The position numbers and the translations under genes are program-made. From contig JAUWGS010000004.1 of assembly GCA_030606285.1 (NCBI GenBank), positions 9,713 to 73,712 of the forward strand: a stretch of DNA of 64,000 bases, written 5' to 3'. Under the pieces are notes generated by a model. It saw only the letters and a program-made list of their open reading frames with translations. It had not been told where the DNA came from and made no database searches. The number at the start of each line of letters is the position of its first letter. The stretch's first letter is position 1. Positions 8,114 to 61,820 of this stretch are shown one piece after another. The DNA is from Planctomycetales bacterium (GTDB taxonomy: Bacteria > 4484-113).

Positions 8114-8283
8114 AGCCGTCTGATGGTTGCGCGAATCGCGCTGCGCACGTGCTGTCTGGGGCGATGCGCGAGTTTATTGCGCAGCTAAAGCCGGAGGACT
8201 TGAATCCCGACGCTCCGCCCGCGCCGTGGTAGGGGCGGGTTCGCTCTGTAAGAGTACATATCGCTTCTATACCAGTTGCCGGT

Positions 8284-9192: not shown

Positions 9193-9444
9193 ATCGTCTC
9201 CCCAAATTAGTTGTGCGACAGCTATACATGAATGTTCGCGGGAAGCCGGCTGGCTTATGTTCCCCTCGGGCGCTCGTCGCGCCCCCTGCAATGATAGACC
9301 AGCGTGCGGCGGTTTGGTTCCGGATTCGGGGCGGAGTCCACCGACTATCCGGTAAAACACGCTATAATCGTGCGACTTCATCGCGCCGGGGCGCGAGACT
9401 GATAAAACGTCAGTGTTTCTGCATTTACTGATGGAGGATGGCAA

Positions 9445-12129
9445 ATGAGAAGCTGTAAATCCCTGTGGGTCATTGCGCTGCTGCTGATACTCCTGTTTTC
9501 CACATCCGCGTTCGCCCAGGAGCAGGAGACGCCGGAGGATGCGCCGGAAGCCGTAGTGGCCGTGGAGCCTGAAGCGCCGGTCGAAGAACCCGCGCCGGCG
9601 CCCGCCGAGGAAGAGGAGGAGAAGTGCGCCTTCGACAAAGCCATTGAGGACTTCGAGTGCATTCCCGGCCTGTTCACGCTCTATTTCAAAGAGGATGAGC
9701 TAAAAGTGCTGCTGGAGCTTGCGCCGGAGCAGCTCGATGAAATCTACCTGTGCAACATCACCGTTGAAGCGGGCGACGGGTATTTTCTGGATTCGGGCGC
9801 GATGCTGGGCAACTTCCCATTTGCTTTCAAGCAGGTGGGTAAAAAGGTGCAGTTCATTCAGAAGAATGTTTCGTACCGCGCCGATCCGGAGTCGCCGCTT
9901 GCGCGCGCGATACCCCGGGGCGTGACGGATTCCGTGCTGGCGTCGTCGCCTATTGTGGGCGAGCCGCACCCGGAGACGAAGCACATACTCGTCGACGCGG
10001 GAGCGTTTTTCCTGCAGGACATCATCGGTGTGGGCATCTGGCTGGGCGAAGCCGCAGGATACGGATTCGACCCATCGGAGACCTACTTCGGGTTTGTTAA
10101 GTCCTTCCCGCTGAACACGGAGATTGAGGTCGTCGCGCACTTCACGGGAATGGGCTTGGAGTCTACGGGACGCGCGATTCCCGACAGCCGCAGCCTGCAG
10201 CACCGCTACCGCTACAGCCTGTGCGCCCTGCCGGACGATGGTTACATGCCGCGCCTGGGTGACGACCGCATCGGCTACTTCATGACGTATTACAGGGATT
10301 ACGACGCGCTGGCGGCAGACCTGCCGTACAAGTACTACATTGAGCGCTGGCGGCTGGAAAAGAAGTTTCCACACCAGGACGTGAGCCCGCCCAAGAAGCC
10401 CATCGTCTACTGGCTGGAGAACACGATTCCCTATGAATACCGCGATGCGGTGCGCGCGGGGATTCTGGAATGGAACACCGCGTTTGAAAAAATCGGCTTC
10501 AAGAACGCGGTTGAGGTAAAACAGATGCCGGACGACGCGGACTGGGATCCGGCGGACATCCGCTACAACGTCATCCGCTGGATTGTCATGCCCGGCTCGG
10601 GATACTGCGTGGGGCCGTCAACGGCGGACCCGTTTACCGGCGAGATTTTCGGGGCGGATGTCCGCATGTGCGCCGATATTGTGCGGTGGATTACCGCTGA
10701 GTTTATAGAGACGGTTGAGCCGCTGTTGGAGCCTTCGACTACCGCGCAAAAGCCGCCGCAGTTTTTAGGCAACAGACAGATTCCGTACGCCGACAACTAC
10801 GCCGAAGGCAAGATGCACGAGGCGGCGTTTGGGTTGAGCCTGCTGAGTGCCCGAAGCGGAATGAGCCTTGATTCGCCGGAGGGGAAGCAGTTCGTCTTTG
10901 ACGCCATTAAAGATCTGGCCACGCACGAGGTCGGGCACACGCTGGGCCTGCGGCACAACTTCAAAGCCAGCACAGTGCACACGTTGCGCGAGATGCACGA
11001 TCGGAGTGTCACCGATGTTGAAGGTGTCTCCGGCTCGGTGATGGACTACAACACGGTTAACATCGCGCCTGTAGGCGAGCCGCAGGGCGAGTACTGGCAG
11101 ACTACGCTTGGCACGTGGGACTACTTCGTGATTGAGTACGGATATAAGGCGATTGACGCCGATTCGCCGGAGGATGAGCTGGCGGAGCTGGAGAAGATAG
11201 CCGAGCGCTCGGGCCTGCCCAAGCTGGTTTTCGGCACGGACGAAGACGCGGCCGGTGGGTCGCCCGTGAGCACCGATCCGCTGTGCAGTATGTGGGATAT
11301 GGGCTCCGACCCGATAGCCTTTTTCCGGCAGCGCATAGAGCTGGGAGAGGAGCTGCTCAGCGTGCTGGAGGAGAAATTCGAGAAGGAAGGCGAGCGCTAC
11401 CAGAAGCTGCGCTGGGCATTCGGCAGCGTTATCTATCCTTACTGGGCGGGCGCATACACCGTTCCCAAATATATCGGCGGCGTTTATCAGGACCGCGCGC
11501 ACATCGGCGATCCCAGCGGCAAGCTGCCGTTTACGCCGGTTCCGGCCGCCAAGCAGCGCGAAGCGATGAGCTTCCTGACGGAGCACGTTTTCGGCTCGGA
11601 CGCGTTTGACTTCCCGCCGGAGCTGATGCGGAAGCTGGTCGCCGAGCGCTACCCGGATTTTGAAGGCACGGTCTACGAGCGCGAGCGCGTAGATTACCCG
11701 CTGCACTCGATGGTGCTGCGCATCCAGAGTTTCGCGCTCCAGCGGCTGTATCATCCGCTTACGCTCAACCGCATGGTTGACCTGCCGCTGCACTATGAGA
11801 AGGGCGAGGACACGTTCACGATGCCGGAGATGTTCCAGGAGCTGCGGTTCGCCATCTGGTCGGAAGTGTATAGCCAAAGCGACGTAGACAGCTTCCGGCG
11901 CAACCTGCAGCGTGAACACCTGGGGATTCTTACCGGCATTGTGCTGGGCATGATGGACGTCCCGCCGGACGCGACGAGCCTGGCGCGGGCGGACATGGTT
12001 GCGCTGCGCGGCGGCATCGCGGCATCGCTACGAAAGGGCGGCCTGGACGCTGCAACATCGGCCCATCTCGACGAATGCCTGGCACGCATAGACGCCGCGC
12101 TGGAAGCGTCCATGCTGCGTGGGTTCTGA
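9445..12129 (+). CDS. secreted zinc-dependent metalloprotease (metzincin-like HEXXHXXGXXH; DUF4953/DUF5117-type architecture)
   Basis: GGAGG RBS and a signal peptide (MRSCKSLWVIALLLILLFSTSAFA), then an acidic linker. Zinc-binding motif HEVGHTLGLRHNF followed by GSVMDYN. Confidence 0.85.
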   Translation: MRSCKSLWVIALLLILLFSTSAFAQEQETPEDAPEAVVAVEPEAPVEEPAPAPAEEEEEKCAFDKAIEDFECIPGLFTLYFKEDELKVLLELAPEQLDEIYLCNITVEAGDGYFLDSGAMLGNFPFAFKQVGKKVQFIQKNVSYRADPESPLARAIPRGVTDSVLASSPIVGEPHPETKHILVDAGAFFLQDIIGVGIWLGEAAGYGFDPSETYFGFVKSFPLNTEIEVVAHFTGMGLESTGRAIPDSRSLQHRYRYSLCALPDDGYMPRLGDDRIGYFMTYYRDYDALAADLPYKYYIERWRLEKKFPHQDVSPPKKPIVYWLENTIPYEYRDAVRAGILEWNTAFEKIGFKNAVEVKQMPDDADWDPADIRYNVIRWIVMPGSGYCVGPSTADPFTGEIFGADVRMCADIVRWITAEFIETVEPLLEPSTTAQKPPQFLGNRQIPYADNYAEGKMHEAAFGLSLLSARSGMSLDSPEGKQFVFDAIKDLATHEVGHTLGLRHNFKASTVHTLREMHDRSVTDVEGVSGSVMDYNTVNIAPVGEPQGEYWQTTLGTWDYFVIEYGYKAIDADSPEDELAELEKIAERSGLPKLVFGTDEDAAGGSPVSTDPLCSMWDMGSDPIAFFRQRIELGEELLSVLEEKFEKEGERYQKLRWAFGSVIYPYWAGAYTVPKYIGGVYQDRAHIGDPSGKLPFTPVPAAKQREAMSFLTEHVFGSDAFDFPPELMRKLVAERYPDFEGTVYERERVDYPLHSMVLRIQSFALQRLYHPLTLNRMVDLPLHYEKGEDTFTMPEMFQELRFAIWSEVYSQSDVDSFRRNLQREHLGILTGIVLGMMDVPPDATSLARADMVALRGGIAASLRKGGLDAATSAHLDECLARIDAALEASMLRGF

Positions 12130-22885: not shown

Positions 22886-23004
22886 TCCTGGTGCCCATAG
22901 CGGAGAGGCCACACCCGTTCCCATCCCGAACACGGCAGTTAAGCTCTCCAGCGCCGATGATACTGCGGAGGGTAACCCCGTGGGAAAGTAGGTCGGTGCC
23001 GGGG
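22886..23004 (+). rRNA. rrf: 5S ribosomal RNA (stand-alone copy)
   Basis: CCUGGUGCCCAUAGCGGAGAGGCCACACCCGUUCCCAUCCCGAACACGGCAGUUAAGCUCUCCAGCGCCGAUGAUACUGCGGAGGGUAACCCCGUGGGAAAGUAGGUCGGUGCCGGG aligns by eye with bacterial 5S (CCGAAC, GCGCCGAUG and AGUAGG blocks; terminal helix CCUGGUGCC/GGUGCCGGG). The ends are accurate to a few nt. Confidence 0.95.
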
Positions 23005-33744: not shown

Positions 33745-34188
33745 CTAGTTGCCGCTGAGACTCTCCCAGAATGTGGGCCAGCGGAACCACAGGCCGGTCA
33801 CCTTCGACTCCTCGTTCAGGACGAGAATGAGCTTGAGCTTCCCTTTTTCCATCTGGACGCGCCATTCATGGGCTCTTTCGTCCAGTCCCAGATAAGTCTC
33901 TGACTTCCAGTCGCCGTACTTGTGCTTGAGTTCGCGGACCACGTCAAGGTACGCGTCCTCGGTGAAGCCTTTGGTGAACATGATGTCGGCGAAATCGGCG
34001 CAGAACTTCTGTTTGTCCTCAGCGTTGTAGCCGGCCTTGATGCCCTCCATAACACGCACGGCGCTTTCGGGCGGAGGCTCCTTTGAAGCACGCTCGCAAG
34101 ATACGAGGAGAAGCATCGCAACAAGCGCGGCTGTATATGCAGCAACAAGCGCCGCAGTCCCCCGATGCTGTCTGGCCCTTTTCCGCAT
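33745..34188 (-). CDS. hypothetical lipoprotein
   Basis: Lipobox MLLLVSC. The start was taken at ATG 34188; the ORF track gives 34212. Confidence 0.55.
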   Translation of the reverse strand: MRKRARQHRGTAALVAAYTAALVAMLLLVSCERASKEPPPESAVRVMEGIKAGYNAEDKQKFCADFADIMFTKGFTEDAYLDVVRELKHKYGDWKSETYLGLDERAHEWRVQMEKGKLKLILVLNEESKVTGLWFRWPTFWESLSGN

Positions 34189-34289
34189 AATGAGGTCCCG
34201 AAATCTTAGCACAGGCTCTTGTCCGGCGGGGTAGGCTCTGCTAGAATTGGCGCGACCTCGCCGAGGTGGCGCAATGGAGGGCTTGTGAT

Positions 34290-35405
34290 ATGAGGAGGTT
34301 CCTTCAGAGGTTCATCCAACTCACCACTAGTGATGCTTTTGCGCAGTACGAGAAGGAGTTTGGCGGGAGAATCGTTTCTTCGCTTGCTCAAGGGTACTCT
34401 TCGGGTCTACATGAGGTGCCGCTAGTTCATATCGTCGAGAATGTCGTCAATAGCGTTAATGACTTTACGATGAGGGATAAGCGGCCCTACGTCGACTTAT
34501 CAACTAGGTCCGTTTTCATTCACGGAAACAAGGCGCAAGTTGAGTTTGATTACTACGGAGACGATGAAAGAGTAGAGTTGGGGGACCTAATATTCATTGT
34601 TTCGGTCGTTCTGGATGGTACTAAGTATTTCGAGAAGCTTACCATCAATCAGTTCAAGAGAGACAAAACCAGAGACAAAACCAGAGACAAAACCCAAACG
34701 AGTAGCACGACCTGGGATATTAGCAATAAGAAGCAGCTTTATTTGCTGTCTAGGTTTCCAGTCTTCAGAGGGGTCAAGGGCTCCATTGTCCCCCATAAGA
34801 CATACGCTTTGGTAGATTATTCAGGGTGCCTAGGGTCCTATGGATTGCTTTACCATCCAGGGGACTTCGCTCTTGTGAGCGCTACCAGACTGGATTCATT
34901 TCTGGGCCACAGGAACAAACTTAAGATGAACGAATTGCACAAGCTCACTTGGGAACAGCCCGGGAAGTGGGGATTTCGCCCTTACCCACGGGTTTTCCCA
35001 ATTGACCATCCCTTTATCGATGAGTTGATCCATCTAACCGAAGGGATATATCCTCCCTATGGAATCGACTGGTATCTGTACGATGTGATCTGGGGTAATT
35101 GCCATCACGCACACAATGTTTTTGACTTCTCACACAAGTACCTAAGACTGTGTATTGGTGAGCCAGTATTTATGAAAGTGGGATTGGATAACCCGCAAGC
35201 CCTAGTATTTCTCCACGAGTTGCTGTCGGCTCTAAGAGCCAAGGCAGAAAGGGATAAGTCTCCAGAGTTACGAGCTTTCTTGAAAGGATTTTTCGAATAT
35301 GACTATGCAGGGAATGAAGGAGGCGGAGCAAAACAAAACGTCGACTTTGACTTTGAGGGCGGAGGGATAGGGATAATTCATACAACGATAAACCTGGGTG
35401 AGTAA
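34290..35405 (+). CDS. orphan hypothetical protein in an AT-richer segment
   Basis: ATG 34290 with GGAGGG nine nt upstream. Composition is visibly AT-richer than the flanks. Contains an in-frame RDKT x3 repeat. No family recognised. Confidence 0.6.
   Translation: MRRFLQRFIQLTTSDAFAQYEKEFGGRIVSSLAQGYSSGLHEVPLVHIVENVVNSVNDFTMRDKRPYVDLSTRSVFIHGNKAQVEFDYYGDDERVELGDLIFIVSVVLDGTKYFEKLTINQFKRDKTRDKTRDKTQTSSTTWDISNKKQLYLLSRFPVFRGVKGSIVPHKTYALVDYSGCLGSYGLLYHPGDFALVSATRLDSFLGHRNKLKMNELHKLTWEQPGKWGFRPYPRVFPIDHPFIDELIHLTEGIYPPYGIDWYLYDVIWGNCHHAHNVFDFSHKYLRLCIGEPVFMKVGLDNPQALVFLHELLSALRAKAERDKSPELRAFLKGFFEYDYAGNEGGGAKQNVDFDFEGGGIGIIHTTINLGE
34659..34694 (+). repeat. perfect 12-bp x 3 tandem repeat (AGAGACAAAACC) inside the orphan CDS
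   Basis: Direct reading of 34659-34694. It encodes RDKTRDKTRDKT. Confidence 0.95.
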
Positions 35406-35638
35406 GGGGTGGTAACGTCATTATGAACTTCTCAAAAGTTCAACCAACATTGGTTTTGGGGATGCGGAATCCGTATCGCTTATCCTAGCACGCTCGGAGG
35501 TGCTGTTCTCTACTTGACGTGAGCGTCAAAGAAGTCAGTTATGCGCTGCGAAAGTTCCTGCTAGTCGAGACCTGTGCTGTGCTCGCGGTCATCTGGGGTA
35601 TAATGCGGATGCCCTGCTAGGAGGGAGGTACGCAAGTT

Positions 35639-37300
35639 ATGGGAAAAACAGTGGCAAGAGCGCGAGCGCTGGTCCTGCTCTCATCAGCAATCGTTCTTAT
35701 GGGCTCGCTGATTGCGCCCGCGCAGGATAGTATCCCTGCTGTCGTCGCTAAAGCGAAGCCTGCTGTGGTAATGATAGTCACTAAGGATGCTTCGGATGAA
35801 CTGCTCAAGCAGGGCACCGGTTTCTTCATCAGTGCTGACGGCCAGCTTGTAACCAGTCGCCATGTCATCATTGGCGCGCACTCAGCCGAGGTCAAGACCG
35901 CGGATGGCAAGACCTATGCGGTTACTGAAGTGCTCGCTGAGGACGAGGAGGCTGACATCATCAAGCTAATGATTGAGGATGGCGGCCGGTCTTCCAACGG
36001 CTTCCCCTTTCTTACGCTGGCACCGAGGTTGCCTGTAGAGGGCGAACAGGTAGTGGTCATTGGCAGCCCGCTCGCGCTGGAAGGTACGGTCTCCGACGGG
36101 CTAGTCTCTGCTGTGCGCGAAATTCCCGCCATAGGACATATCATCCAGATAACCGCGCCTATCTCTCCCGGCTCTAGCGGAAGTCCGGTGCTTAACCTGC
36201 GGGGCGAAGTCGTCGGAATCGCATCGTTCCTCATTGAGGAAGGCCAGAGCTTGAACTTCGCTATTCCTGCTGAGAAGATTCGCGCGCTCGTTCCGGGCGC
36301 ACCGAGAAGCCTTAACGAGTGGCGATTCGGGACCCGGGATGTGCTCGCTTCAGTCGAAGGTTTGTCGCAGGGCCTTTCTAGACTGTCGGAGGAGGACTAC
36401 GCAGGTGCACTTAGCTTTTTCTTGAAGGCGCTAGAAGCTGACCCGAGAAATCCGTTTGTATGGTTGTTGGCCGGCTACTGCTACGGCGAGCTTGGCCACT
36501 ATCAGGAGGCGATGGAGGAATTCAAGCAGGCGATACGGATAAAGCCTGATTATGCCGAGGCGCACTATAACCTGGGCGTCACCTACGGCGAGCTCGGCCG
36601 CCATCAGGAAGCGATAGAGGCATTCAAGCAGGCGATACGGATAAAGCCTGATGATGCCGAGGCGCACTATAACCTGGGCGTCACCTACGGCGAGCTTGGC
36701 CACTATCAGGAGGCGATGGAGGCATACAAGCAGGCGATACGGATAAAGCCTGATTATGCCGACGCGCACTATAACCTAGGCGTCACCTACGGCGAGCTCG
36801 GCCGCCACAGCGAGGCGATGGAGGCATACAAGCAGGCGATACGGATAAAGCCTGATGATGCCGAGGCGCACAATAACCTGGGCGTCGCCTATGGCAGGCT
36901 CGGCCGCCATCAGGAAGCGATAGAGGCATTCAAGCAGGCGATAAAGATAACGCCTGATTATGCTAATGCGCACAATAACCTTGGAATCGTCTACGGCGAG
37001 CTTGGCCGCCAGCACGAGGCGATAGGGGCATTCAAGCAGGCGATACGGATAAAGCCTGATAATGCCGAGGCGCATCGTAACTTGGGGGTGGCATACACCA
37101 AGCTTGGCAGCTATGACGAGGCGATAGAGGCATATAAGCAGGCGATACGGATAAAGCCTGATTTCGCAGAGGCGCACTTGAGTTTGGGAGCGGCATATCT
37201 AATGGTTGGCAACCGGGGCGCAGCACTTGACGAGTATGCGATCCTGAAGGAGCTGAATGAGGAGCTCGCCAGTATACTGTTCGATCTTCTCTATCCATGA
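35639..37300 (+). CDS. secreted trypsin-like (S1C/Trypsin_2) serine protease fused to ~8-9 TPR repeats
   Basis: Signal peptide; catalytic context TSRHVI, ADIIKL and GSSGSPV; then TPR units such as EAIEAFKQAIRIKPDDAEAHYNLGVTYGELGRHQ. TATAAT plus GGAGGGAGG lie upstream. Confidence 0.85.
   Translation: MGKTVARARALVLLSSAIVLMGSLIAPAQDSIPAVVAKAKPAVVMIVTKDASDELLKQGTGFFISADGQLVTSRHVIIGAHSAEVKTADGKTYAVTEVLAEDEEADIIKLMIEDGGRSSNGFPFLTLAPRLPVEGEQVVVIGSPLALEGTVSDGLVSAVREIPAIGHIIQITAPISPGSSGSPVLNLRGEVVGIASFLIEEGQSLNFAIPAEKIRALVPGAPRSLNEWRFGTRDVLASVEGLSQGLSRLSEEDYAGALSFFLKALEADPRNPFVWLLAGYCYGELGHYQEAMEEFKQAIRIKPDYAEAHYNLGVTYGELGRHQEAIEAFKQAIRIKPDDAEAHYNLGVTYGELGHYQEAMEAYKQAIRIKPDYADAHYNLGVTYGELGRHSEAMEAYKQAIRIKPDDAEAHNNLGVAYGRLGRHQEAIEAFKQAIKITPDYANAHNNLGIVYGELGRQHEAIGAFKQAIRIKPDNAEAHRNLGVAYTKLGSYDEAIEAYKQAIRIKPDFAEAHLSLGAAYLMVGNRGAALDEYAILKELNEELASILFDLLYP
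36440..37210 (+). repeat. 102-bp tandem periodicity (about 7-8 units) encoding highly similar TPRs
   Basis: GCGATACGGATAAAGCCTGAT recurs at 36530, 36632, 36734, 36836, (36938 variant), 37040 and 37142. Confidence 0.9.
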
Positions 37301-50201: not shown

Positions 50202-51650
50202 ATGAGCCTGGAAGGGGTCAACAGGTCCGCCGAGCGCTTCGTCACCACGCTTGCCCGCGAGGGCGGGATGAAGCTTGCGCCGCGCATCTTCAGCCATCCG
50301 CGCATCCCGCTGGAAAAGGACGCGGTGCGCCAGCTTCGGGATGCGGCGCAGCTTCCCGGCGTGCTGGACGTGGTCGGAATGCCCGACATCCACGTGGGTT
50401 ACGGTGTGCCCATCGGCTGCGTAATCGCGGCGCTGGATATCGTCTGCCCCGCCGCAGTGGGTTACGACGTGAACTGCGGAATGCGCCTGCTAACCTCCCC
50501 GCTGAGAGCTGGAGAAGTGAACCCCAAACGGGTTGCCGACGAAATCGCCAAGCGCATTCCGCTGGGCGAGGGCAAGAACAACTACGCGCTGGATAAGAAG
50601 TCCTTCCGGCGGCTGGTCAATAAAGGCGTGCCCGGCCTGGCGGATGTGGACATCCCGCAACTGGCAAAGGATCTGCGCCATGACTGGGAGCTGGTCTCGG
50701 AGATCGATAACATTGAGGATCGCGGATCCCTGCCCGCGAACGCCAACGCCTGCTCGGACGGCGCATTGAAACGCGGACGCACGCAACTCGCGACTCTCGG
50801 CGGCGGCAACCACTTCATCGAATTGCAGGCCGTTGACCGTATCGAGGATGAAGCCGTCGCTCGCGAGTTCGGGCTGTTCAAGGGGCAGTTCGTGATAATG
50901 CTGCACAGCGGCAGTCGCGGCATAGGCCATCAAGTCGGCGACGACTATATGGCGCTGGGACGCCAGATTGCGGACAAGGACCGGCGCGAGATGGTGAACC
51001 GCGAGCTGCCGTACTTCCGGCTTTCGGAAAAGCACGCCGACGATTACCTTGGCGCGATGAACGCCGCCGCAAACTTCGCGTTTATCAACCGCCACCTGAT
51101 GGCGCTGCTGGTGAAGGACGCCTTCCTGACGAGCTATCCCGGCGTGCGGCTGAAACTTCTGTGGGATCTCGCGCACAACATCGCCAAGTTCGAGGAGCAT
51201 CTGGGCAACCGCATACTGGTGCATCGCAAGGGCGCGGCGCGCGCTTTCGGGCCCGAGCGTATGAAAGGCACGCGGTTTGCGCACACCGGCCAGCCGGTGC
51301 TCGTTCCCGGCAGCATGGGCACTGCGAGCTATGTGATGATCGGCACTGAAAAAAACGCCGACACGTACGCGTCCATCAACCACGGCGCAGGGCGCGTGAT
51401 GAGCCGCATCGCTGCCAGCGGGCGCAGCCGGCGGGGCAGGGACCTCCGCGGTCGCAGAGCAGCTATCAGCGACGAGGATTTTGCGCGCGCGATGGAAGGC
51501 ATCTACCTCATTTCGGAAAATATCCGCACGGTGAAGGAAGAAGCGCCGCAGGCCTACAAGGACATTGACCTCATCACCGAAGCCGTCGTCGGCGCCGGTT
51601 TAGCGCGCACCGTGGCGCGGCTGAAGCCCCTGGCTGTGCTGAAAGGATAA
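50202..51650 (+). CDS. rtcB: RNA-splicing ligase RtcB (3'-phosphate/5'-hydroxyl RNA ligase)
   Basis: GMPDIHVGYGVPIG, GGGNHFIELQ and HSGSRGIGHQ motifs. The start was moved from the ORF-track 49989 to ATG 50202; ATG 50268 is also possible. Confidence 0.9.
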   Translation: MSLEGVNRSAERFVTTLAREGGMKLAPRIFSHPRIPLEKDAVRQLRDAAQLPGVLDVVGMPDIHVGYGVPIGCVIAALDIVCPAAVGYDVNCGMRLLTSPLRAGEVNPKRVADEIAKRIPLGEGKNNYALDKKSFRRLVNKGVPGLADVDIPQLAKDLRHDWELVSEIDNIEDRGSLPANANACSDGALKRGRTQLATLGGGNHFIELQAVDRIEDEAVAREFGLFKGQFVIMLHSGSRGIGHQVGDDYMALGRQIADKDRREMVNRELPYFRLSEKHADDYLGAMNAAANFAFINRHLMALLVKDAFLTSYPGVRLKLLWDLAHNIAKFEEHLGNRILVHRKGAARAFGPERMKGTRFAHTGQPVLVPGSMGTASYVMIGTEKNADTYASINHGAGRVMSRIAASGRSRRGRDLRGRRAAISDEDFARAMEGIYLISENIRTVKEEAPQAYKDIDLITEAVVGAGLARTVARLKPLAVLKG

Positions 51651-51692: not shown

Positions 51693-52640
51693 ATGCTCGT
51701 GCTTGCCGAAAAGCCCGAAAAGCTCATTGACGCGGTCATTGATGACGCGGGACTAAAACAGTTGGCGCGCAACACGTGGAAGCTGCCCTGGATGGAGCGG
51801 TACGAGAGCGACAGGAAGCTAAGACGGAAGATCAAGGACTACATCAGGGCTGACACGAGAATTTTCACCAACGAAGGAAGCACCAAGCGAATTATCGCTG
51901 TGCAAACGGGTGCGGATTTTTTCATCTATGCGCGCAGCGACAGTGCATACAGGCACACGATGAAAGACCTCTACGCGCCGTGCGTCGAGCCCGGCATTCG
52001 TTTCCCCGACAGGGGCATGCACAGGTACTGGGATAAGTGGAACAAAGGGCGGCCGTACATCTTCGTGCACGGGCCGTTCGGCGCGTGGAAGCGTGGGCTG
52101 GAAGCAGGATTCAAAGCCTGGTGGCCCCGGCGGTATCCCGAAGAGAAGAAGCGGCGCAAGATGCGGCGCGGCGATGCGCGGACGTGGTACGTGACGGGCA
52201 AGCCAAGGTTCGGCAGGCGTGTCAAGCACAAATGCCGTGCTATCGAGGGCAGCGACGAGTTTTTGCCGCTCATCGTCCAGGGCGTGGAGTACGGCCGGGA
52301 GGCGAAGGACTACCTGCGCGATTGCCTGCTGCTGGGGCCGAGCTTCGTCTGCGAGGTGAAGGGCGAGCCGGTCTGCTGGGCGGGTACGCACATCAACGGT
52401 ACGATGGGCATGATTTACACGCCGTCGGAGCACCGCCGCAAGGGCTATGCACTGTCGCTGGCGGCGTTTCAGATGGACTACATGCTGCGGCGCGACGGGA
52501 CGGCCGTGGCGCACGTTATACTCGGCAACAAGGTCAGCGAGAAGTTGCTGGCGGTGTTCGGCGCGAAGCACTCGCCGGGCACGATGACCTGGCGCTCCCT
52601 CGTCTGGCCCCGCTGGAAACACAAGAAGCTGAAGGAGTAG
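51693..52640 (+). CDS. hypothetical protein with a C-terminal GNAT (FR47-like) acetyltransferase-type domain
   Basis: The C-terminal GMIYTPSEHRRKGYALSLAAFQMDYML fits the GNAT acetyl-CoA-binding region. The N-terminal ~200 aa are unrecognised. Confidence 0.6.
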   Translation: MLVLAEKPEKLIDAVIDDAGLKQLARNTWKLPWMERYESDRKLRRKIKDYIRADTRIFTNEGSTKRIIAVQTGADFFIYARSDSAYRHTMKDLYAPCVEPGIRFPDRGMHRYWDKWNKGRPYIFVHGPFGAWKRGLEAGFKAWWPRRYPEEKKRRKMRRGDARTWYVTGKPRFGRRVKHKCRAIEGSDEFLPLIVQGVEYGREAKDYLRDCLLLGPSFVCEVKGEPVCWAGTHINGTMGMIYTPSEHRRKGYALSLAAFQMDYMLRRDGTAVAHVILGNKVSEKLLAVFGAKHSPGTMTWRSLVWPRWKHKKLKE

Positions 52641-52705
52641 GGGGACAGCGAGATTTAGGCGTTCTCGCAGGGAATCGGGTAGAATACTAGTGGAGATATC
52701 GCACG

Positions 52706-52950: not shown

Positions 52951-53310
52951 GTGAAGTTCGTTGCCGACGAGAATGTAGATACAGGTATAGTCGACTCACT
53001 TCGTGTTTCAGGGCACGATGTTCTCTATATACCTGAGTTCGCAAAAGCGCTCTCTGACGATGAAGTGTTAACTCTCGCTCGAAGTGAGCGCGCTGTGCTA
53101 ATTACTGCTGATAAGGACTTCGGTGAGTTGGTCTTTCGGCGCCGGTCTTGCGCGCACCGTGGCGCGGCTGAGACCGTTGGCTGTGCTGAAGGGGTAGGGG
53201 CCTCCGACCTCGCCGGGCACGATGACCTGGCGCTCCCTCATCTGGCCCCGCTGGAAGCGCAAGAAGCTGAAGGGGTAGGGGCTTGGGCGCTACAGGCTTC
53301 GGCAATTTGA
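52951..53310 (+). pseudogene. truncated/chimeric DUF5615 (PIN-like, Mut7-C-type) toxin gene
   Basis: The first ~62 aa (MKFVADENVDTGIVDSLRVSGHDVLYIPEF...LITADKDFGELVFRR) are typical. From about 53138 the ORF runs out-of-frame through remnants of rtcB and GNAT 3' ends. Confidence 0.7.
53138..53281 (+). repeat. diverged remnants of a second rtcB 3' end (53138-53197) and GNAT-gene 3' end (53209-53281)
   Basis: Hand alignment gives 51/60 nt identical to 51591-51650 and 69/73 nt identical to 52571-52643. In the original frames they still read GAGLARTVARLRPLAVLKG* and SPGTMTWRSLIWPRWKRKKLKG*. The 17-mer GCTGAAGGGGTAGGGGC occurs at both remnant ends. Confidence 0.85.
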
Positions 53311-54189: not shown

Positions 54190-55140
54190 TCATTTTGAGC
54201 TTGAGTTCATGTAAGGAGCGAGGATGTCCATCGCCGAACGATACGCTGCATTAACACTGTTGGTGGGGAATGACAGCTTGCTAAAGTATCTTGCATGAGA
54301 GGCTATAGCCATGAAATAAGTCATCTCAGCTACAGACTGAAGCATCTGTCCCATTAAGGTATCCCTATTAGCAGGAGTGAACATCAGCGCGAAATAGCTC
54401 GTATGGTGGTAGGTCGACAAGAACTTATACAGTGGTCCACTTGGACTATCTTTAACCTTGGGGAGAGTAGCCTTTAAATACCTATCAACATCTCTATCCC
54501 CGCGAGATATTAATCCTTTTTGTTTTACCGTGAAAACGTCCAAATCTTCTAGTAGTCTCTCACTCTTCAAGTATTCATCGCGCAACAACTCGAAATTCGA
54601 ATATAGCCATTGAGCTAGCTGCGTAATCTTAGGATTCGGAGTAATACGCTCTTGAACAATGAAGCTTGGACAGCGTTTCTTCAATGAGAGAGTGTGCTTT
54701 TCAGCATTTTCTTTGAAAATATTGCGTTCTTGAACAAGGAGCTTGTCTTCACCAGGTTGTGTTTCTTTATGGATATAGAATGCCTTCATCAAGCCATGAA
54801 TGATGAAGACTTGATGGTGCGCATAACGTAGATTATTAGTACGTGGAAGTACAAGGTAAAAAAAGTTGTGGTGAAATCCAAGTATCGTTCTCATCAATAG
54901 AGCCATGCTATAGAGGTCATTATGACCGCAAGCGTCTACCGCATATCTACTACAAAGAAATGATTGATGTAGCAAGACTACTACTGAATGCCTTGGTTCT
55001 TCTTCCTTGCAGCCCGTAGTAAGCCAGTCCTTTGGCAACGAAGATACGCTGTCAAGTAGCCTTGTAGTTGCGTCAACACACGATTGTAGTTCCGAAGAAA
55101 CCACTTGATTAAAGCACGGAGGCTCTACCGGCATCGACAT
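54190..55140 (-). CDS. orphan hypothetical protein (most AT-rich gene of the window)
   Basis: A 316-aa ORF with no signal peptide or TM helix. The only motif noticed is an R-x5-H (MRTILGFHH). Family unknown. Confidence 0.55.
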   Translation of the reverse strand: MSMPVEPPCFNQVVSSELQSCVDATTRLLDSVSSLPKDWLTTGCKEEEPRHSVVVLLHQSFLCSRYAVDACGHNDLYSMALLMRTILGFHHNFFYLVLPRTNNLRYAHHQVFIIHGLMKAFYIHKETQPGEDKLLVQERNIFKENAEKHTLSLKKRCPSFIVQERITPNPKITQLAQWLYSNFELLRDEYLKSERLLEDLDVFTVKQKGLISRGDRDVDRYLKATLPKVKDSPSGPLYKFLSTYHHTSYFALMFTPANRDTLMGQMLQSVAEMTYFMAIASHARYFSKLSFPTNSVNAAYRSAMDILAPYMNSSSK

Positions 55141-56613: not shown

Positions 56614-56649
56614 CGGACTTATTCTATCAGAAAGCGCGTACTCGCACTG

Positions 56650-57357
56650 TCAGCTTCCCGCGTGTATGAAGCGGCCGAACCAGATGAGCAGGTAAGCGTT
56701 AGCGCCGGCGTGAAATGCCCAGGGAACTAGCAGACCGCGGCTGAGCAGCGCGGTCGCGCCGAGGATAAATCCTGCTGCAAGGACAACCAGCGCGGGAAGC
56801 CATAACGCGGAGAACATAAACGTAATCGGCATCACGTGGAAACCCGCGAAGATTATCGCGTGCAGCAAGTTGGGTGTAGCACTTCGCGCATCAGCGAGTA
56901 TCGGTAGTACACGCCCGCGCCAGAGCGCTTCTTCCGCCAGCGGGTTCATCAATCCGAAATAGACGGCGATGGGCAGGTAGCTCCGGGCGTTTAGCCCCAG
57001 CGCATCTAACGGGCGTGTTGTCACGTCGGGGAGCGCCTGAGCCGGAAGCAGCGGAAGGATGTACTCCATCACAATCCACGTGAGCACGAAGCCGGTAATG
57101 AGCGCGAAAACGGCAACGCCGCTTTGCGTTATGTTGAATCGCAGGGGGCGTCTTGAGCGCAGCAATAGCCATCCGCCGCCGCAGAGCGCGACGTGGTAGA
57201 CAATCATTGTGAGCAGCGCGCTCTTGAACCAGAAGAGCCCCAGCGCTACCCACAGGTAGATCGCTATACACCAGAAAACTAGCCGAAGAAGTGAAGGGCG
57301 CCCGGTCACGCCACTATCATAGCGCGAGTGGGGCAACATAATAACCGTCGTCCGCAA
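56650..57357 (-). CDS. CPBP-family intramembrane glutamic endopeptidase (CAAX protease/Abi family)
   Basis: NPLAEEALWRGRV (EExxxR), IIFAGFHV (FxxxH) and WAFHAGANA (HxxxN), with multiple TM helices. Confidence 0.8.
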   Translation of the reverse strand: MRTTVIMLPHSRYDSGVTGRPSLLRLVFWCIAIYLWVALGLFWFKSALLTMIVYHVALCGGGWLLLRSRRPLRFNITQSGVAVFALITGFVLTWIVMEYILPLLPAQALPDVTTRPLDALGLNARSYLPIAVYFGLMNPLAEEALWRGRVLPILADARSATPNLLHAIIFAGFHVMPITFMFSALWLPALVVLAAGFILGATALLSRGLLVPWAFHAGANAYLLIWFGRFIHAGS

Positions 57358-57419
57358 TCAGCAAGGCGTGCGTGCGCCGGTAGAAGCCGCCACGCGGGAA
57401 CGTGTGTAGCGCCGAGTGT

Positions 57420-60400
57420 CTACTTGGCGGGAAGCTGCCGGCTGATCTCTCCCTGGTACCATTGCGGCCAGCCGGCGGGAGGCTTCAGGCCAAGGTTCAG
57501 CGCTTCTGACATCTTCGCCTTTGCCTCGTCCACCTGCTTCAGCGCGTAAAGCGACAGGCCCCAGTAGTAGTAGTTGGAAGCGTTTTGAGGGGAGGCCTTG
57601 GCGCAGGATTCGTACTTCTCCACCGCCAGCTCGTGTTTCTTGAGGGTCGCCAGCACCGTGCCCCAGGCGTACAGCGCGCTGCCGTAGTCAGGCCGGATCT
57701 CTACAGCCCGGTGGTAAGCCTTCTCAGCTTCATCGAACTGCTTCTTTGCAGACCGCGCGTGTCCCAGATTATGGAAGAACCGCGAATCCTCCGCGTTGAG
57801 TTCGACAGCCTTGTTATATTTCTTTATAGCGTCGTCAATCTTCTTGAGCATGTAGAAGCAGTTGCCCCAGTAGTAGTATGTGTCAGGATCATCAATTCCC
57901 AGCTTTCCCGCCTCCACGAACTGCTTCAGCGCGTCTTCATATTTGCGCAGCCGGAAGAGTGCGATTCCACGGTACGAGTATGCCTCGGCCAGCTTGTTGT
58001 CAAGCACTGTCGCCTTCTTCAGCAGCTCAAGTCCTTCTCTGATCTTGCCAAGCACGACGAGAGCTTTGCCCTGCCCGAGGTGCGCTATGGCGTTGTCCGG
58101 AGCCAGCTCTACAGCCTTCGCGAACTTCTGTTGGGCTTCTTTGAAACGCTTGAGTTTGGTGAGCGCTTCGCCCCACAGGAGAAAAACATCAGCGTCCTCC
58201 GGACGGAGTTCGGAGGCGACCTGCGCCTTGTGCCGGGATTCCTCGTATCTGCCAAGGTCGTTCAGCGTTCGCAGCCAGTGCATATAGGAATCTGCGTACG
58301 TATCGTTTGGTTTCACCGCTTCTTCGTACTTGTCGACCGCTTCCTCGCACCGCCCAAGCGCCATCAGCGCATCGCCCCAGTTGAAGTAAAGCGCGGGGTG
58401 CTTTGCCAGGTCCCCCTTGGCGGCCAGTTTCTCCACGAGCTCCAGGGCGCGCGTCGCTTCGTTCTTCGCCAGCGCCTCGATCACTTTATTGAGTGCCCGC
58501 GACGGGTCCGCCTGGGTGGCCTCTGTGTGCATTTTGGCGAGCCGCTCGTTCAGGTTCTTTACCGTGTTTTCCTGTACCTCTGCCAGGCTTTCGAGTTCGG
58601 TGATTTTCGCCGTGCTCTCACCCAGTTTTTTCTCCAGCTCCTGGACCTGTGAGGAATCAGCTTCGGCTTTTTCTTTCTGAGACTTGATTTCGGCAATGGC
58701 GGCATCGCGCTCCGCCAGTTGTTTTTCCAGCTCAGCAGTCTTCTGTGACGCTTCGCCGAGCTTAGTCTCAACTTCGCTTGCCTTCTTGCCGGCGGCATCT
58801 GCCTGAGCAAGTCTTGCCTGCGACTCCTCGAGTTGCTTCTTTAACGCCTTAAACTGCGTGTCCCGTTCCTGGAGCTTTTTCTGGAGCTCAGTCAGCTCCA
58901 TCGAGTTTTCATACGCTTTGCTTTCGATCTCGCCCGCGCGGGCTTCTGCCGCTGCCAGCTTCGCAGCGAGCTCCTTGCCGCCCGTGTGGGCTTCACGAGC
59001 CGCAGTTTCGCGCTCATCCAGTTGCGATTTCAGCTTGGCGGCGGCATCTTCGTGCTCCTTCAGTTTCTTTTCAAGTTCAGTGGTACCGGCGCTCTTTTTC
59101 TTCAGCTCGTTATCGAGTTCGGTTGCGCGCTGTTGAGCTTTCTTGAGCTGCTCCGATGACTGAGCAGCGACCTGGTCGCGTTTCTTCAGTTCAGCGTCGA
59201 GTTCGGCGATGCTGGCGCTTTTCTTTTTCAATTCGTTATCAAGCTCGGTTGCGCGCTGTTCAGCATTTTTAGTCTGCTCCGATGATTGCGCAGCGACCTG
59301 GTCGCGTTTTTTCAGTTCAGCGTCAAGCTCACTGATGCGCTGTTCAGCGTTTTTGAGTTGCTGCGATGACTGCGTAGCGACCTGGTCGCGTTTCTTCAGT
59401 TCAGCGTCGAGTTCGCCAATGCGCTGTTGAGCTTTTTTAAGCTGCTCCGATGACTGCGCACCAGCTTGGTCGCGCTTCTTCAGGCTTTCCTCTTGCTCGC
59501 GTACTTTCGCTTCCCATTGAGCCGCTTTTGCCTCCTGGGCTTTCACGCTGTCCGAGCTGGATGACAGGCGTGTTTCAAGTTCATCAGCCTTGTGTTTCCA
59601 TTCGTTCGTCGAAGCCAGCAATTCATCGGACTTGTGCTTCAGCTCATCGGAGGTAGTCAGAAGCTCCTCGACCTGCTTGTCACGCTCATCCAGCCGTGCC
59701 TGCGCGTCCTCCAGGCTGGCCTCCCGTTCGCTGACGGTAGCAGACAGCTCATCTGCCTGTTTGGATTGCTCCGCGAGCTGATGCTTCAACTCCGCGTTTT
59801 CGGTGAGGGACTCCTTGAGCTGCGTCTGGGCTTCATTGAGCGCAGCCTGCAGCTTCCGCACGGAGTCGACGGTCTCCTGAGCCTGTGTGCCGATTTCCTT
59901 GAGTTTCGCCTCCCTGCCTGCAAGCTTCGATTCGGCATCCTTGATTCGCGTGTCGAACTCGCCGAGGGATTTCTCCAGCTTGCTCATCTGCACAGTTTCC
60001 TCTTCTTTTTCAGCTTCGCGCTCCTGTATCTTGGCCTCAAGGCCTCTGATGTGCGCCGCTTTCTCTTCAAGCTGCGCTTCCAGGACTTTTACGTGCGCCT
60101 CGCGCTCTTCAACACGCGCTTTGAATTGCTCTACCGAGGCGCTTGCCTCGTGCGCTGTGTGTTCACGCTTCTTCACCGCTTCCCGGGCTTCGTTGAGCTG
60201 CGTTGTCAGCTCCTTGAGCTTACTGCCACTTGCGGCCGCTGACTTCTCAGCTAAAGCCGTGCGCTTCTCCACACCGGCAGTGAGTTCAGTACTCTTGCGC
60301 AGTTTAGCTTCCAGCTCACGGTTAGCGGCCTGGAGCGTACGCAGCTTCTCGTCTTTTTGCGCCAGCAGTTTATCTAGCTGCGCGGTTTTTTCTTTGCCGC

Positions 60401-61820
60401 CCTTGGCGAGCTTGTCGCGTTCCTTGAAGTCGCTTTCCAGGTCGGCAATGCGTCCGTCACGGTCAGCCACCTGGGCACGGAGTTCTTCGATCTCCTTCTC
60501 ACGGGAGGCAATAGTCTGGGTATGTGCTTTGGCCTTCTCGCCGTGTTCTTCGACCTCCGACTGCAGGCTGCGATGTCTGTCTTTGTATTGCGCCAGCTCG
60601 GCCTGGAGCTGGTCTCGCGCAGCTTCGCGCTCCTTGACGCCAGCCTCAAGGTCACGCGTCTTTGCCATATGTTCTTGCAGTTGCGCCTCGAGTGCTTTTG
60701 CCTGTGCCTCCTTCTCCTGAACCGTGTTCTGAAGCTTTTTCACAAGTGCGTCGCGCTTCGCCGCCGCCTTAGCCCGTGCCCCGGCTCCAGCCTTGGATGT
60801 GAGTTCCTTCAGGCTGACATTCTGCTCGGACACCTTGGCCTCGAGTTCTTTCAGACTCCCGTCGCGCTCGGTCAGTTGCTTTTCGAGATCCTTCAGCCTG
60901 GCGTCCCGGTCGGCAAGCTTCTTGTCTCTGGTTGCATCGGCCTGCTTTGCCGTTTCCGCCTCTGCCTTCGCAACCTGCTGTTCGAGTTCGGCGATCTGGC
61001 TGTCGCGCTCTGCAATCGCTTTCTCGGCATCTTTAAGTTTACCCGCAAGGGCTGTGTCGTCTGCAGCAGGGGCTACGCCTTCGGGTGCGGGCTTGGCGCC
61101 GGATATCTCATAGCGGCCGAGCTTCGCGGACAGCTCCTTGACCTTTCGATTGCGCTGGAGCAGTTTCTGCTCAAGGTCGCGCACGCGGCGCTCCAGCGCT
61201 TCCTTGTCTGCACCCTCATCCACCGGCTCAGCCTCGTCCTCCTCCTCGACTTCCGGTTTGGCCGCCCGCTTCGGTTCGGGAGGTTTCTCGCCGCGCGTGG
61301 CCTCGAATTCCTCCAGCAGCTTTGGCAGCGACTTCAGCGACTTGGAAGCTTGACCACCGCTCACCTCCATCGCTGTCAGCAATTCCTGCCAGCCTTTTTC
61401 TCCCGTGACCTCAATCTTGACCGCCTGCAGCAGGACAGCTGGCAGGCTGCCGGGTTCGAAGAGCACTGCGAGCGCGGCGGTCTGAGGGAATGCGCGATGG
61501 TAAGTATTCAGTTCGTGAACGCAGTTGAGCGAGCGTGTCCAGGATCGTGAGACGACGATGACCAGATGCTTGCTGACGAGCGCAGCTTCGTCCGCGGCGC
61601 GCTCGGACTCCTCGTCCTCACCGTGGACTTCGTCGAACCATACACGGAGACCAGCACCGGACAAGAGTTTGTTGAGCAGCTTCCCCTCAGCCAGTGCAGT
61701 CCCCGGATGGTAGCTGACAAAAACGTCGTACTTATAGTCCAATTCAGCCGTTACCTCGTACCCCGGGCTGCCAGTCACTATTCTAACAGATGGCTCACCT
61801 TGCCCGGTCGTTTCAGTCAA
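57420..61820 (-). CDS. 1,466-aa TIR-domain / long coiled-coil / TPR-repeat protein
   Basis: TIR-like N-terminus (aa ~30-150, nt about 61371-61733): YDVFVSYH, LRVWFDE and VVSRSWTRSLNCVHEL. About 900 aa of E/K/A/L/Q-rich heptad-like sequence (about 58420-61250). About 10 TPRs at the C-terminus (about 57480-58420). No signal peptide, TM helix or P-loop. Confidence 0.8.
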   Translation of the reverse strand: MTETTGQGEPSVRIVTGSPGYEVTAELDYKYDVFVSYHPGTALAEGKLLNKLLSGAGLRVWFDEVHGEDEESERAADEAALVSKHLVIVVSRSWTRSLNCVHELNTYHRAFPQTAALAVLFEPGSLPAVLLQAVKIEVTGEKGWQELLTAMEVSGGQASKSLKSLPKLLEEFEATRGEKPPEPKRAAKPEVEEEDEAEPVDEGADKEALERRVRDLEQKLLQRNRKVKELSAKLGRYEISGAKPAPEGVAPAADDTALAGKLKDAEKAIAERDSQIAELEQQVAKAEAETAKQADATRDKKLADRDARLKDLEKQLTERDGSLKELEAKVSEQNVSLKELTSKAGAGARAKAAAKRDALVKKLQNTVQEKEAQAKALEAQLQEHMAKTRDLEAGVKEREAARDQLQAELAQYKDRHRSLQSEVEEHGEKAKAHTQTIASREKEIEELRAQVADRDGRIADLESDFKERDKLAKGGKEKTAQLDKLLAQKDEKLRTLQAANRELEAKLRKSTELTAGVEKRTALAEKSAAASGSKLKELTTQLNEAREAVKKREHTAHEASASVEQFKARVEEREAHVKVLEAQLEEKAAHIRGLEAKIQEREAEKEEETVQMSKLEKSLGEFDTRIKDAESKLAGREAKLKEIGTQAQETVDSVRKLQAALNEAQTQLKESLTENAELKHQLAEQSKQADELSATVSEREASLEDAQARLDERDKQVEELLTTSDELKHKSDELLASTNEWKHKADELETRLSSSSDSVKAQEAKAAQWEAKVREQEESLKKRDQAGAQSSEQLKKAQQRIGELDAELKKRDQVATQSSQQLKNAEQRISELDAELKKRDQVAAQSSEQTKNAEQRATELDNELKKKSASIAELDAELKKRDQVAAQSSEQLKKAQQRATELDNELKKKSAGTTELEKKLKEHEDAAAKLKSQLDERETAAREAHTGGKELAAKLAAAEARAGEIESKAYENSMELTELQKKLQERDTQFKALKKQLEESQARLAQADAAGKKASEVETKLGEASQKTAELEKQLAERDAAIAEIKSQKEKAEADSSQVQELEKKLGESTAKITELESLAEVQENTVKNLNERLAKMHTEATQADPSRALNKVIEALAKNEATRALELVEKLAAKGDLAKHPALYFNWGDALMALGRCEEAVDKYEEAVKPNDTYADSYMHWLRTLNDLGRYEESRHKAQVASELRPEDADVFLLWGEALTKLKRFKEAQQKFAKAVELAPDNAIAHLGQGKALVVLGKIREGLELLKKATVLDNKLAEAYSYRGIALFRLRKYEDALKQFVEAGKLGIDDPDTYYYWGNCFYMLKKIDDAIKKYNKAVELNAEDSRFFHNLGHARSAKKQFDEAEKAYHRAVEIRPDYGSALYAWGTVLATLKKHELAVEKYESCAKASPQNASNYYYWGLSLYALKQVDEAKAKMSEALNLGLKPPAGWPQWYQGEISRQLPAK
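59090..59490 (-). repeat. about 4 near-identical intragenic repeats in the coiled-coil region
   Basis: GACCTGGTCGCGTTTCTTCAGTTCAGCGTC(G/A)AG recurs at about 59170, 59295, 59380 and (variant) 59462. It encodes ELDAELKKRDQVA(A/T)QSS(E/Q)QLK.A(E/Q)QR. Confidence 0.85.

Follow-up and report, generated by a model that had tools for sequence, protein, structure and literature searches.

The window analyzed here, a 64,000-nucleotide stretch of contig JAUWGS010000004.1 from a Planctomycetales bacterium, carries on its minus strand a giant gene whose product appears to be a cytoplasmic protein composed of an N-terminal TIR domain, a coiled-coil rod and a C-terminal array of tetratricopeptide repeats (TPRs). 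The gene is followed by one for an intramembrane protease of the CPBP family, and comparisons with related genomes suggest that the two form a unit that has become fixed in one small clade of uncultured bacteria, where it is passed on vertically. Specifically, the giant protein is assigned from its sequence to a rare TIR-spacer-TPR family, and its N-terminus aligns as a real but divergent TIR domain that has kept the glutamate and cysteine of the αC motif while losing the tryptophan of the WxxxE motif. A previous sequence-only reading of the stretch had described a TIR-rod-TPR architecture, which is correct, and had put the locus forward as a candidate defense system. In our view the giant protein adds to the TIR-TPR proteins a new variant with a long rod, and its pairing with a CPBP gene is likewise new; so far, this does not amount to evidence for a new defense system.

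Gene model and domain architecture

The longest open reading frame (ORF) of the giant gene, at 57420 to 61820 of the minus strand, encodes 1,466 amino acids counted from its first TTG, and it is present in the ORF list just as the sequence-only reading gave it. Three orthologues open at the codon that matches Leu27 of this frame (with TTG, GTG and TTG as their start codons), this codon is also where the gene begins, 114 nt past the xerD stop, in an independent gene call on the Logan contig L025, and an alignment of the regions between xerD and the giant gene contains a conserved block resembling a ribosome-binding site, GAGGTAAC, directly 5′ of TTG 61742. Because these observations converge on TTG 61742, this codon is almost certainly the true start, which would yield a protein of 1,440 residues with the TIR domain beginning at residue 2. 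The extra 26 codons of the longest frame, up to 61820, show no conservation. Residue numbers below refer to the 1,440-residue protein, and those marked as the reader's numbers refer to the 1,466-residue frame (E77 is therefore the reader's E103). The motifs quoted in the sequence-only reading are at the residues where it placed them, as is the codon for this glutamate.

An acidic, proline-rich linker (30% glutamate and 17% proline across residues 151 to 180) separates the TIR domain from a rod of about 860 residues, which would measure about 124 nm if fully extended. There is no proline from residue 226 to residue 1079, and a hydrophobic periodicity of 3.5 residues, which peaks around the center of the rod, is strong between about residues 230 and 1065. 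The earlier description of some 900 residues of heptad-like sequence is thereby borne out, and we infer that rods pair as coiled coils, giving a dimer or a higher oligomer. Parts of the rod are built from repeats of 28 or 42 residues (four or six heptads), whose copy number varies among orthologues. Beyond the rod, a dense set of Pfam TPR families matches at about the reader's residues 1140 to 1440. The repeats expected at this end are thus present; their number, previously estimated at about 10, is nine, in an exact 34-residue register. The tail that follows them reads PPAGWPQWYQ... and is conserved.

We searched the giant protein for Walker A and B motifs and for transmembrane-like segments and found neither, nor does any NTPase family of Pfam match it. 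The earlier statement that it has no ATPase head, P-loop or transmembrane helix therefore stands, as does the statement that its composition is host-like, given that the GC content of the gene resembles that of the rest of the window. A STAND protein of the Avs or NLR-like type, with TIR, NTPase and TPR modules, was considered and rejected, the central P-loop NTPase (NB-ARC or NACHT) being absent.

No curated family covers the giant protein, to which PADLOC and NCBIfam give domain-level or compositional matches only. The Pfam rod models of crescentin and tropomyosin match weakly and look compositional, and a crescentin-type cytoskeletal protein was rejected because Rod_CreS, whose gathering score is 100, reaches only 30.6 bits. 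An SMC-, Rad50- or MukB-like identity was likewise discarded, the matches being confined to the coiled-coil parts of the models and Walker motifs being absent. The NCBIfam SMC model, which has a cut-off of 567 bits, scores 124.9, and the NCBIfam matches to SMC, Rad50 and MamA lie only in coiled-coil or TPR segments and far below their curated cut-offs. The same segments account for the PADLOC matches to JetC, LmuB and DruC, which we judge to be compositional. Nor does the rod resemble an SMC-like hairpin: there are no ATPase heads, and there would be no SMC-like hinge because the heptad periodicity peaks near the middle of the rod.

The TIR domain and its active site

Pfam TIR_2 (PF13676) matches the reader's residues 33 to 139 with E=1.3e-6, and the TIR motifs are readily recognized as box 1 (YDVFVSY), the βB strand (LRVWFDE) and the αC motif (SLNCVHEL). 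An exhaustive HMMER search of 1.84e9 representative proteins with the window TIR domain returned 12 matches at E<=1e-3, the best at 3.5e-9, and TIR_2 is present in all 10 of those that were scanned. The assignment is reciprocal because the scanned matches all carry TIR_2, and the small number of matches shows the window domain, as far as sequence can place it, to be an outlier among TIR domains. Architectures among the nearest other TIR matches include TIR-WD40, TIR-NACHT, TIR-SAVED and TIR-Death. When used alone as a phmmer query, the window TIR domain found no match among the sequences of the PDB; only a profile built from five family members did, matching the solved TIR domains of Roq1, RUN1 and SNC1 at E values of about 4e-6 to 7e-6, SARM1 at about 4e-4 and AbTIR at about 1e-3. 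An N-terminal TIR domain, as originally proposed, is thus upheld by Pfam, by the reciprocal matches and by the profile match to RUN1 and Roq1.

Identity to the plant domains of RUN1, Roq1 and SNC1 is about 25-30%. In the alignment the family motif C-x-x-E-L overlies C-L-D-E-L of RUN1, such that E77 falls on E100, the catalytic glutamate of RUN1 (bioRxiv 10.1101/2021.10.02.462850). This glutamate, which the sequence-only reading had already equated with the catalytic position, is invariant in the five aligned family members and, by inspection, in the orthologue L009 as well. The cysteine three residues before it is also invariant across the family, even at about 27% identity. At the position of the WxxxE tryptophan, four residues before the glutamate, the window clade has asparagine, and the short relatives P0002 and P0003 (described below) have arginine and alanine. 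Of the active-site block originally proposed, then, the glutamate and cysteine hold, but the tryptophan of its 'SRSW' is not the canonical one; it aligns with the tyrosine of the plant 'NYA' motif, and asparagine stands where the WxxxE tryptophan would be.

The RUN1 mutations W96A and W96T impair NAD+ cleavage (bioRxiv 10.1101/2021.10.02.462850), and the WxxxE tryptophan is reported to show strong conservation in those TIR domains that make cyclic ADP-ribose (cADPR) and weaker conservation in others (PMC11374754). Because the glutamate and cysteine are invariant while the WxxxE tryptophan is absent, NAD+ hydrolysis by the window TIR domain is plausible and cyclase chemistry would be less likely. 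The earlier suggestion of an NADase or signal generator thus agrees with the conserved glutamate, while the missing tryptophan makes catalytic competence less certain.

A single-sequence AlphaFold model of the domain (pLDDT 52) reproduces the β-α-β-α order of the TIR fold. Despite the low confidence of this model, its top Foldseek matches in the PDB are TIR domains (BtpA, RPS4/RRS1, AbTir, PdTIR and L6), although the TM-scores reach no more than 0.4-0.5. Structure prediction agrees with a TIR identity in strand order and in fold matches, though not with high confidence, and a flavodoxin-like TIR fold of the N-terminus of the giant protein is tentatively supported rather than shown. The corresponding single-sequence model of the TPR region has a pLDDT of 50.

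A rare family with spacers of very different length

Among 185,579 species-representative genomes, the giant gene was found in four species known from metagenome-assembled genomes (MAGs). These are AUK046 (locus L001; 79% identity in the best segment), GMC4.metabat2.94 (L002; 64% in the best segment), 'Planctomycetales bacterium' QNS170220_bin_166 (L009; 63% in the TIR domain) and MFD04716.bin.2.297 (L020 and L021), whose copy resembles that of L009 by inspection. The gene order xerD, giant gene, CPBP gene, rarA is the same in all four, and groESL, hrcA and dnaJ lie upstream of xerD wherever the contig extends that far.

Two much shorter relatives are collinear with the window protein at both its TIR end and its TPR and tail end. 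P0002 (586 residues) consists of a TIR domain, a helical spacer of about 130 residues and TPRs, and P0003 (267 residues) of a TIR domain, a spacer of about 90 residues, a single TPR and the same GWPxW tail. Since these proteins share both ends with the giant protein, they define a TIR-spacer-TPR family. On these alignments, the spacer of the family ranges from about 90 to about 900 residues and the clade of the window has expanded it about tenfold. Two other TIR matches (L010 and L012) are ordinary TIR-STAND proteins, distant relatives of the TIR domain that we do not count as family members, and L003 and L004, recovered in the search with P0002, are TPR look-alikes rather than the P0002 contig.

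The loci recovered in these searches provide some additional observations. P0003 (L005, 5582-6385, plus strand) lies in the order ClpX, a 144-residue ORF, the mini TIR-TPR gene and NadA, and is directly upstream of this last gene (6910-7926, plus strand), which encodes quinolinate synthase, an enzyme of NAD biosynthesis. The arrangement is suggestive of a tie to NAD metabolism, but we give it no weight, given that it is a single locus and may be due to chance. L010, from a Pseudanabaenaceae MAG, encodes a protein that combines caspase-like His/Cys motifs with a TIR domain at its C-terminus (6630-7880, plus strand), followed by a 918-residue TIR protein (7968-10724, plus strand) that looks STAND-like with helical repeats, as judged by sequence alone. 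The two resemble a typical conflict-system pair and are unrelated to the TIR-spacer-TPR family. The Logan contig L025 ends within the giant gene (4302-6656), and the copy in L020 (1495-5493) is split into several ORFs; such assembly breaks and frameshifts are likely due to the repetitive rod.

The CPBP protease gene and its pairing with the giant gene

The ORF downstream of the giant gene extends from 56650 to 57357 on the minus strand, and the start conserved in the orthologue alignment is GTG 57309. With this probable start, the protein has 219 residues and the gap between the two genes is 110 nt in the window and 9 nt in L009. The earlier reading correctly placed a CPBP gene next to the giant gene on the same strand, but its distance of 62 nt lengthens to 110 nt when the conserved start is used. 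Its recognition of a CPBP protease with EExxxR, FxxxH and HxxxN motifs was also sound: PF02517 matches with E=2e-12 and 47.5 bits, well over its gathering score of 22.4, and the motifs EEALWR (56917-56934), FAGFH (56836-56850) and HAGAN (56698-56712) are all intact. The protein contains several hydrophobic segments of 19 residues. No specific NCBIfam subfamily fits; MrtJ comes closest, but its 24.5 bits fall short of the cut-off of 75. The 'Abi' name of the family is said, after Kjos et al. 2010, to reflect bacteriocin self-immunity rather than phage defense. We know of no described pairing of a CPBP protease with a TIR protein.

Evidence that the pair is expressed together comes from a short motif, TGNTAGAAT, that occurs nine times in the window against an expectation of 0.83, a number reached in none of 100 shuffled sequences. 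The copies, which start at 1344, 4293, 14674, 34239, 37907, 43441, 47572, 56621 and 61780, are often directly 5′ of gene starts, and the motif is probably an extended -10 promoter element of this lineage. A generic scan for sigma-70 promoters and terminators was uninformative, whereas the organism-specific motif was informative. The copy before the giant gene, TGTTAGAAT, lies in an intergenic block that is invariant across four genomes, and the next copy on that strand, TGATAGAAT, is the one before rarA. Between the giant and CPBP genes there is no copy of TGNTAGAAT, either in the window or in the other loci that cover this site. The layout is identical in L001, L002 and L009, and L021, which covers only the portion from the CPBP gene to rarA, agrees there. 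Because the promoter motif brackets the pair, an arrangement that goes beyond plain synteny, the layout supports a single predicted transcription unit of giant and CPBP genes with TGATAGAAT marking its downstream end. As a separate observation, the motif lies 8 nt from the rarA ATG in the window, L001, L002 and L021, which suggests leaderless transcripts.

The pairing is kept in all five genomes of the clade. Thus, the co-occurrence that would be expected of functional partners is present within the clade and is reinforced by the promoter-bounded unit, but it does not extend to the P0003 locus. Coordinates of the features discussed are collected in Table 1.

Table 1. Features of the giant gene, the CPBP gene and their promoter motifs in the window
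Feature	Position	Strand	Basis or remark
TIR-rod-TPR gene, 1,440 residues (start almost certain)	57420..61742	-	ORF list, orthologue starts, L025 gene call
TIR domain, residues 1-150 (reader's 27-176)	61293..61742	-	Pfam TIR_2, family profile, Foldseek
Conserved Glu codon, E77 (reader's E103)	61512..61514	-	Alignment with RUN1 E100
Acidic, proline-rich linker, residues 151-204	61131..61292	-	Composition
Predicted coiled-coil rod, residues ~205-1065	58548..61130	-	Heptad periodicity, no proline
Tandem 84-nt and 126-nt repeats within the rod	59088..59483	-	TRF, gaps in the orthologue alignment
Nine TPRs, residues 1113-1418, with a helical cap before them	57483..58406	-	Pfam TPR families, register
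Conserved Trp-rich C-terminal tail, PPAGWPQWYQGEISRQLPAK	57423..57482	-	Alignments; common to P0003
CPBP (Rce1-like, 'Abi' PF02517) intramembrane glutamic protease, 219 residues (probable start)	56650..57309	-	Pfam, motifs, orthologue alignment
TGTTAGAAT, extended -10-like promoter motif	61780..61788	-	38 nt upstream of the giant start
TGATAGAAT, promoter motif	56621..56629	-	8 nt upstream of the rarA start

Evolution of the giant gene and its neighborhood

With the window protein or gene as the reference, the two end domains of the giant protein evolve much as the proteins of the surrounding block do (Table 2). Because the ratios of nonsynonymous to synonymous substitution rates (dN/dS) of the TIR and TPR segments are comparable to those of DnaJ and XerD, both ends would be under purifying selection of a housekeeping level, and the TPRs give no sign of diversification. 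In the rod the sequence drifts while the length remains roughly constant, and the giant protein as a whole varies from 1,368 to 1,484 residues across orthologues.

Table 2. Amino acid identity to the window protein and dN/dS relative to the window gene
Segment or gene	Identity (%), L001/L002/L009	dN/dS, L001/L002
TIR domain	91/82/63	0.08/0.12
TPR region	91/88/51	0.07/0.07
Rod	78/65/31	0.16/not computable (dS saturated)
DnaJ	90/80/62	0.07/0.09
XerD	93/84/68	0.11/0.07
RarA		0.10/0.11
CPBP	77/73/64	0.19/0.26

The neighbors had been described as housekeeping genes, and indeed the locus is embedded in a block that runs from groESL and hrcA through dnaJ and xerD to rarA. The wider window likewise holds ordinary chromosomal functions. 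Synteny ends just past rarA, where a 316-residue ORF and an RDD gene of the window are absent from the other loci. XerD was considered as an island-boundary integrase and rejected, as its gene overlaps dnaJ by 4 nt and is syntenic in all genomes; the protein passes the NCBIfam tyrosine-recombinase model and falls just under the cut-off of the XerD equivalog.

Other features of the window

The 316-residue ORF (54190-55140, minus strand) lies in a stretch of lowered GC content (0.52) and has no Pfam, NCBIfam or PADLOC match. A 5S rRNA gene (22887-23004, plus strand, 112.8 bits) is apparently unlinked, with no 23S or 16S rRNA gene in the 64-kb window. Two pairs of direct repeats correspond to copies of gene 3′ ends: 51589-51649 and 53136-53196 (87% identical) to that of an RtcB gene, and 52546-52643 and 53184-53281 (84%) to that of an acetyltransferase-like gene. 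Both copies are side by side just past a truncated DUF5615/PIN-like ORF (52951-53310) and may be what a duplication or insertion left behind as a scar. Finally, a gene at 35639-37300 (plus strand) fuses a trypsin-like peptidase to a long TPR array, in the part of the window with the lowest GC content (0.50, at 34001-36000).

Relationship to known TIR proteins

The closest described counterpart in architecture is TIR-II, an antiphage system of E. coli that consists of TIR and TPR modules in one or two proteins, requires the TIR active-site residues for its function and is said to be widespread, also in phages (PMC11350192). The likeness is one of architecture only, namely the joining of TPRs to a TIR domain in a single protein with no obligatory NTPase. 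TIR-II differs in having no coiled coil of about 860 residues, whereas the window family is extremely rare, chromosomally fixed and paired with a CPBP gene. The sequence-only reading recognized no described system with a TIR-rod-TPR architecture. It is true that no curated family has it, but the statement is too strong given the TIR-plus-TPR proteins already described as TIR-II in E. coli (PMC11350192).

Other TIR proteins share individual features with the giant protein. The plant receptors RUN1, Roq1 and SNC1 have the same box 1 (YDVF.S.), the Ser..Cys..Glu-Leu αC motif and the catalytic glutamate position, but W96 of RUN1 is asparagine, arginine or alanine in the window family, which also lacks the AE-interface context of the plant domains and their NB-ARC and LRR modules. 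The bacterial proteins AbTir, BtpA/TcpB, PdTIR and TcpC, which are among the top Foldseek matches, fuse the TIR domain to a coiled-coil dimerization region. Their coiled coils, however, are about 100-150 residues long and N-terminal to the TIR domain, and TPRs are absent; moreover, AbTir requires the tryptophan for 2′cADPR production (PMC11374754). SARM1, an ARM-SAM-TIR NADase, employs an analogous logic in which a helical-repeat sensor and an oligomerization module control an assembly-dependent TIR domain. In this case homology is limited to the TIR domain, the domain order is reversed, a SAM ring takes the place of the long coiled coil, and SARM1 keeps the WxxxE tryptophan (W638) that the window domain is without. 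The second gene is a clear member of the CPBP/Rce1-like family PF02517, with all three catalytic motifs.

Is the locus a defense system?

The proposal that the locus is a candidate defense system does not fare well when the evidence is considered together, since the giant gene lies in a housekeeping block, evolves like DnaJ and XerD, has no PADLOC-recognized genes among the neighbors scanned and has no relatives in the phage and plasmid collections searched. PADLOC gave no match for the CPBP gene or for 12 neighboring genes over about 22 kb, and on the TIR domain it returned only the TIR-SAVED model, weakly, at 20.6 bits. Thus, nothing passes its cut-offs beyond compositional or domain-level matches, although the release used (2.0.0) predates the TIR-II system. 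Thoeris in particular has no PADLOC match in the giant protein or its neighbors, and these neighbors are XerD, DnaJ, CPBP and RarA, with no ThsA-type effector. Searches with tblastn of plasmid and phage collections and a scan of IMG/VR found no relatives of the giant protein. A defense role is possible but unsupported, and the evidence agrees with the caveat of the sequence-only reading that a role in structure or stress is just as possible.

An anti-phage function would take the form of an abortive-infection sensor-effector, in which the TPRs recognize a phage protein, the rod oligomerizes and the TIR domain depletes NAD+ or makes a signal, with the CPBP protease as accessory or effector. The giant protein would then be, in function, a long-rod cousin of TIR-II. 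We consider this rather unlikely. The catalytic glutamate does not vary across the family, whose distribution is very sparse, the nearest other TIR matches include conflict-type architectures, and single proteins with TIR and TPR modules do protect E. coli, with TIR active-site mutants losing defense (PMC11350192). In contrast, the gene occupies a fixed position between the groESL/hrcA-dnaJ-xerD genes and rarA in five of five genomes, its TPRs have a dN/dS like that of DnaJ and are without signs of diversification, and the protein is without an NTPase or a known signal-sensing partner. The negative searches described above also count against an anti-phage function.

Models for the function of the giant protein

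The reading we prefer, although we hold it tentatively and at somewhat less than an even chance, is that the giant protein is a resident, regulated NAD-cleaving protein built on a scaffold. The rod would form a two-stranded (or higher) coiled coil of about 120 nm that determines both the stoichiometry of the end domains and the distance between them, while the TPR and tail end would bind a protein partner or ligand, possibly at the membrane beside the CPBP protease. The TIR domains would constitute a module whose cleavage of NAD+ is regulated, in that it starts only when they assemble with one another, as other TIR enzymes require, and a TIR domain without the tryptophan would more likely be a hydrolase than a cyclase forming cADPR isomers. 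Because the giant gene behaves as a core gene, we consider it more likely that the trigger is a stress signal or one intrinsic to the cell, or that innate immunity is served here in a fixed form, than that the gene is a mobile anti-phage cassette.

Several observations weigh against this reading. The TIR_2 score only just exceeds its gathering score (29.3 versus 28 bits), and the AlphaFold models of the TIR and TPR regions (pLDDT 52 and 50) are both of low confidence. Lacking the WxxxE tryptophan, the TIR domain could be catalytically weak or non-enzymatic. The status of the giant gene as a core gene rests on five genomes from one clade, whose taxonomy is as given by the submitters; the label Chloroflexi is attached to a fragment that shares at least 90% identity with the window RarA. 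Finally, the P0003 locus has no CPBP gene within about 5 kb upstream and about 10 kb downstream, although this is one distant relative.

This last observation bears on a different reading of the pair, in which the TIR-rod-TPR protein acts by itself and the CPBP gene is adjacent only incidentally, having been inherited with the whole block. Synteny within the clade is just as complete for all the flanking genes, and the CPBP gene evolves faster than its neighbors (dN/dS of 0.19-0.26); both points speak for this reading. The bracketing of the pair by the promoter motif at every locus that covers the site is harder to reconcile with this account, as is the gap of only 9 nt in L009 and the persistence of the pair where synteny decays just past rarA. 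We therefore view incidental adjacency as a serious possibility, but one that we would not expect to hold.

A purely structural, cytoskeleton-like scaffold or tether is unlikely in our estimation. Here the TIR and TPR ends would be non-enzymatic interaction modules held apart by a spacer of about 120 nm, with the TPR and tail end perhaps anchored to the membrane close to the CPBP protease. Such a function would account for a rod whose length is kept while its sequence drifts and whose indels are multiples of the heptad, for the conserved Trp-rich tail, and for the loss of the WxxxE tryptophan that RUN1 needs for NADase activity; in addition, the evolutionary rate, synteny and own conserved promoter of the giant gene resemble those of housekeeping genes. 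However, invariance of the glutamate and cysteine at about 27% identity is expected of catalysis rather than of a scaffold, and the crescentin rod model scores far under its cut-off. Because the family members of 267 and 586 residues have no long rod, the rod would be an add-on to the TIR-TPR function rather than its core.

A version that merges the tether with enzymatic activity is the least probable of the readings that we graded. In this arrangement a core cytoskeleton-like coiled-coil tether of about 120 nm would be docked through its TPR and tail end at the CPBP protease in the membrane, or be processed by it, and would hold its distal TIR domains at a set distance from the membrane, where they cleave NAD+ or signal. 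If true, this would be the first bacterial TIR protein with a constitutive role in cell architecture or stress signaling, rather than one in a mobile immune cassette.

Implications for TIR enzymology

To our knowledge, every bacterial TIR protein characterized so far either belongs to a mobile anti-phage system or is an effector of a pathogen. One whose gene behaves as a conserved core gene would widen the contexts in which TIR enzymology is known. The family may be missed or truncated in automated gene catalogs, at least with regard to its giant members. Regardless of the precise function, the series of spacers of about 90, 130 and 900 residues is a natural test of the importance of geometry in TIR activation. 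Similarly, an active site that has lost its tryptophan and kept its glutamate provides a natural test of which residues are needed for the cleavage of NAD+ and which for its cyclization.

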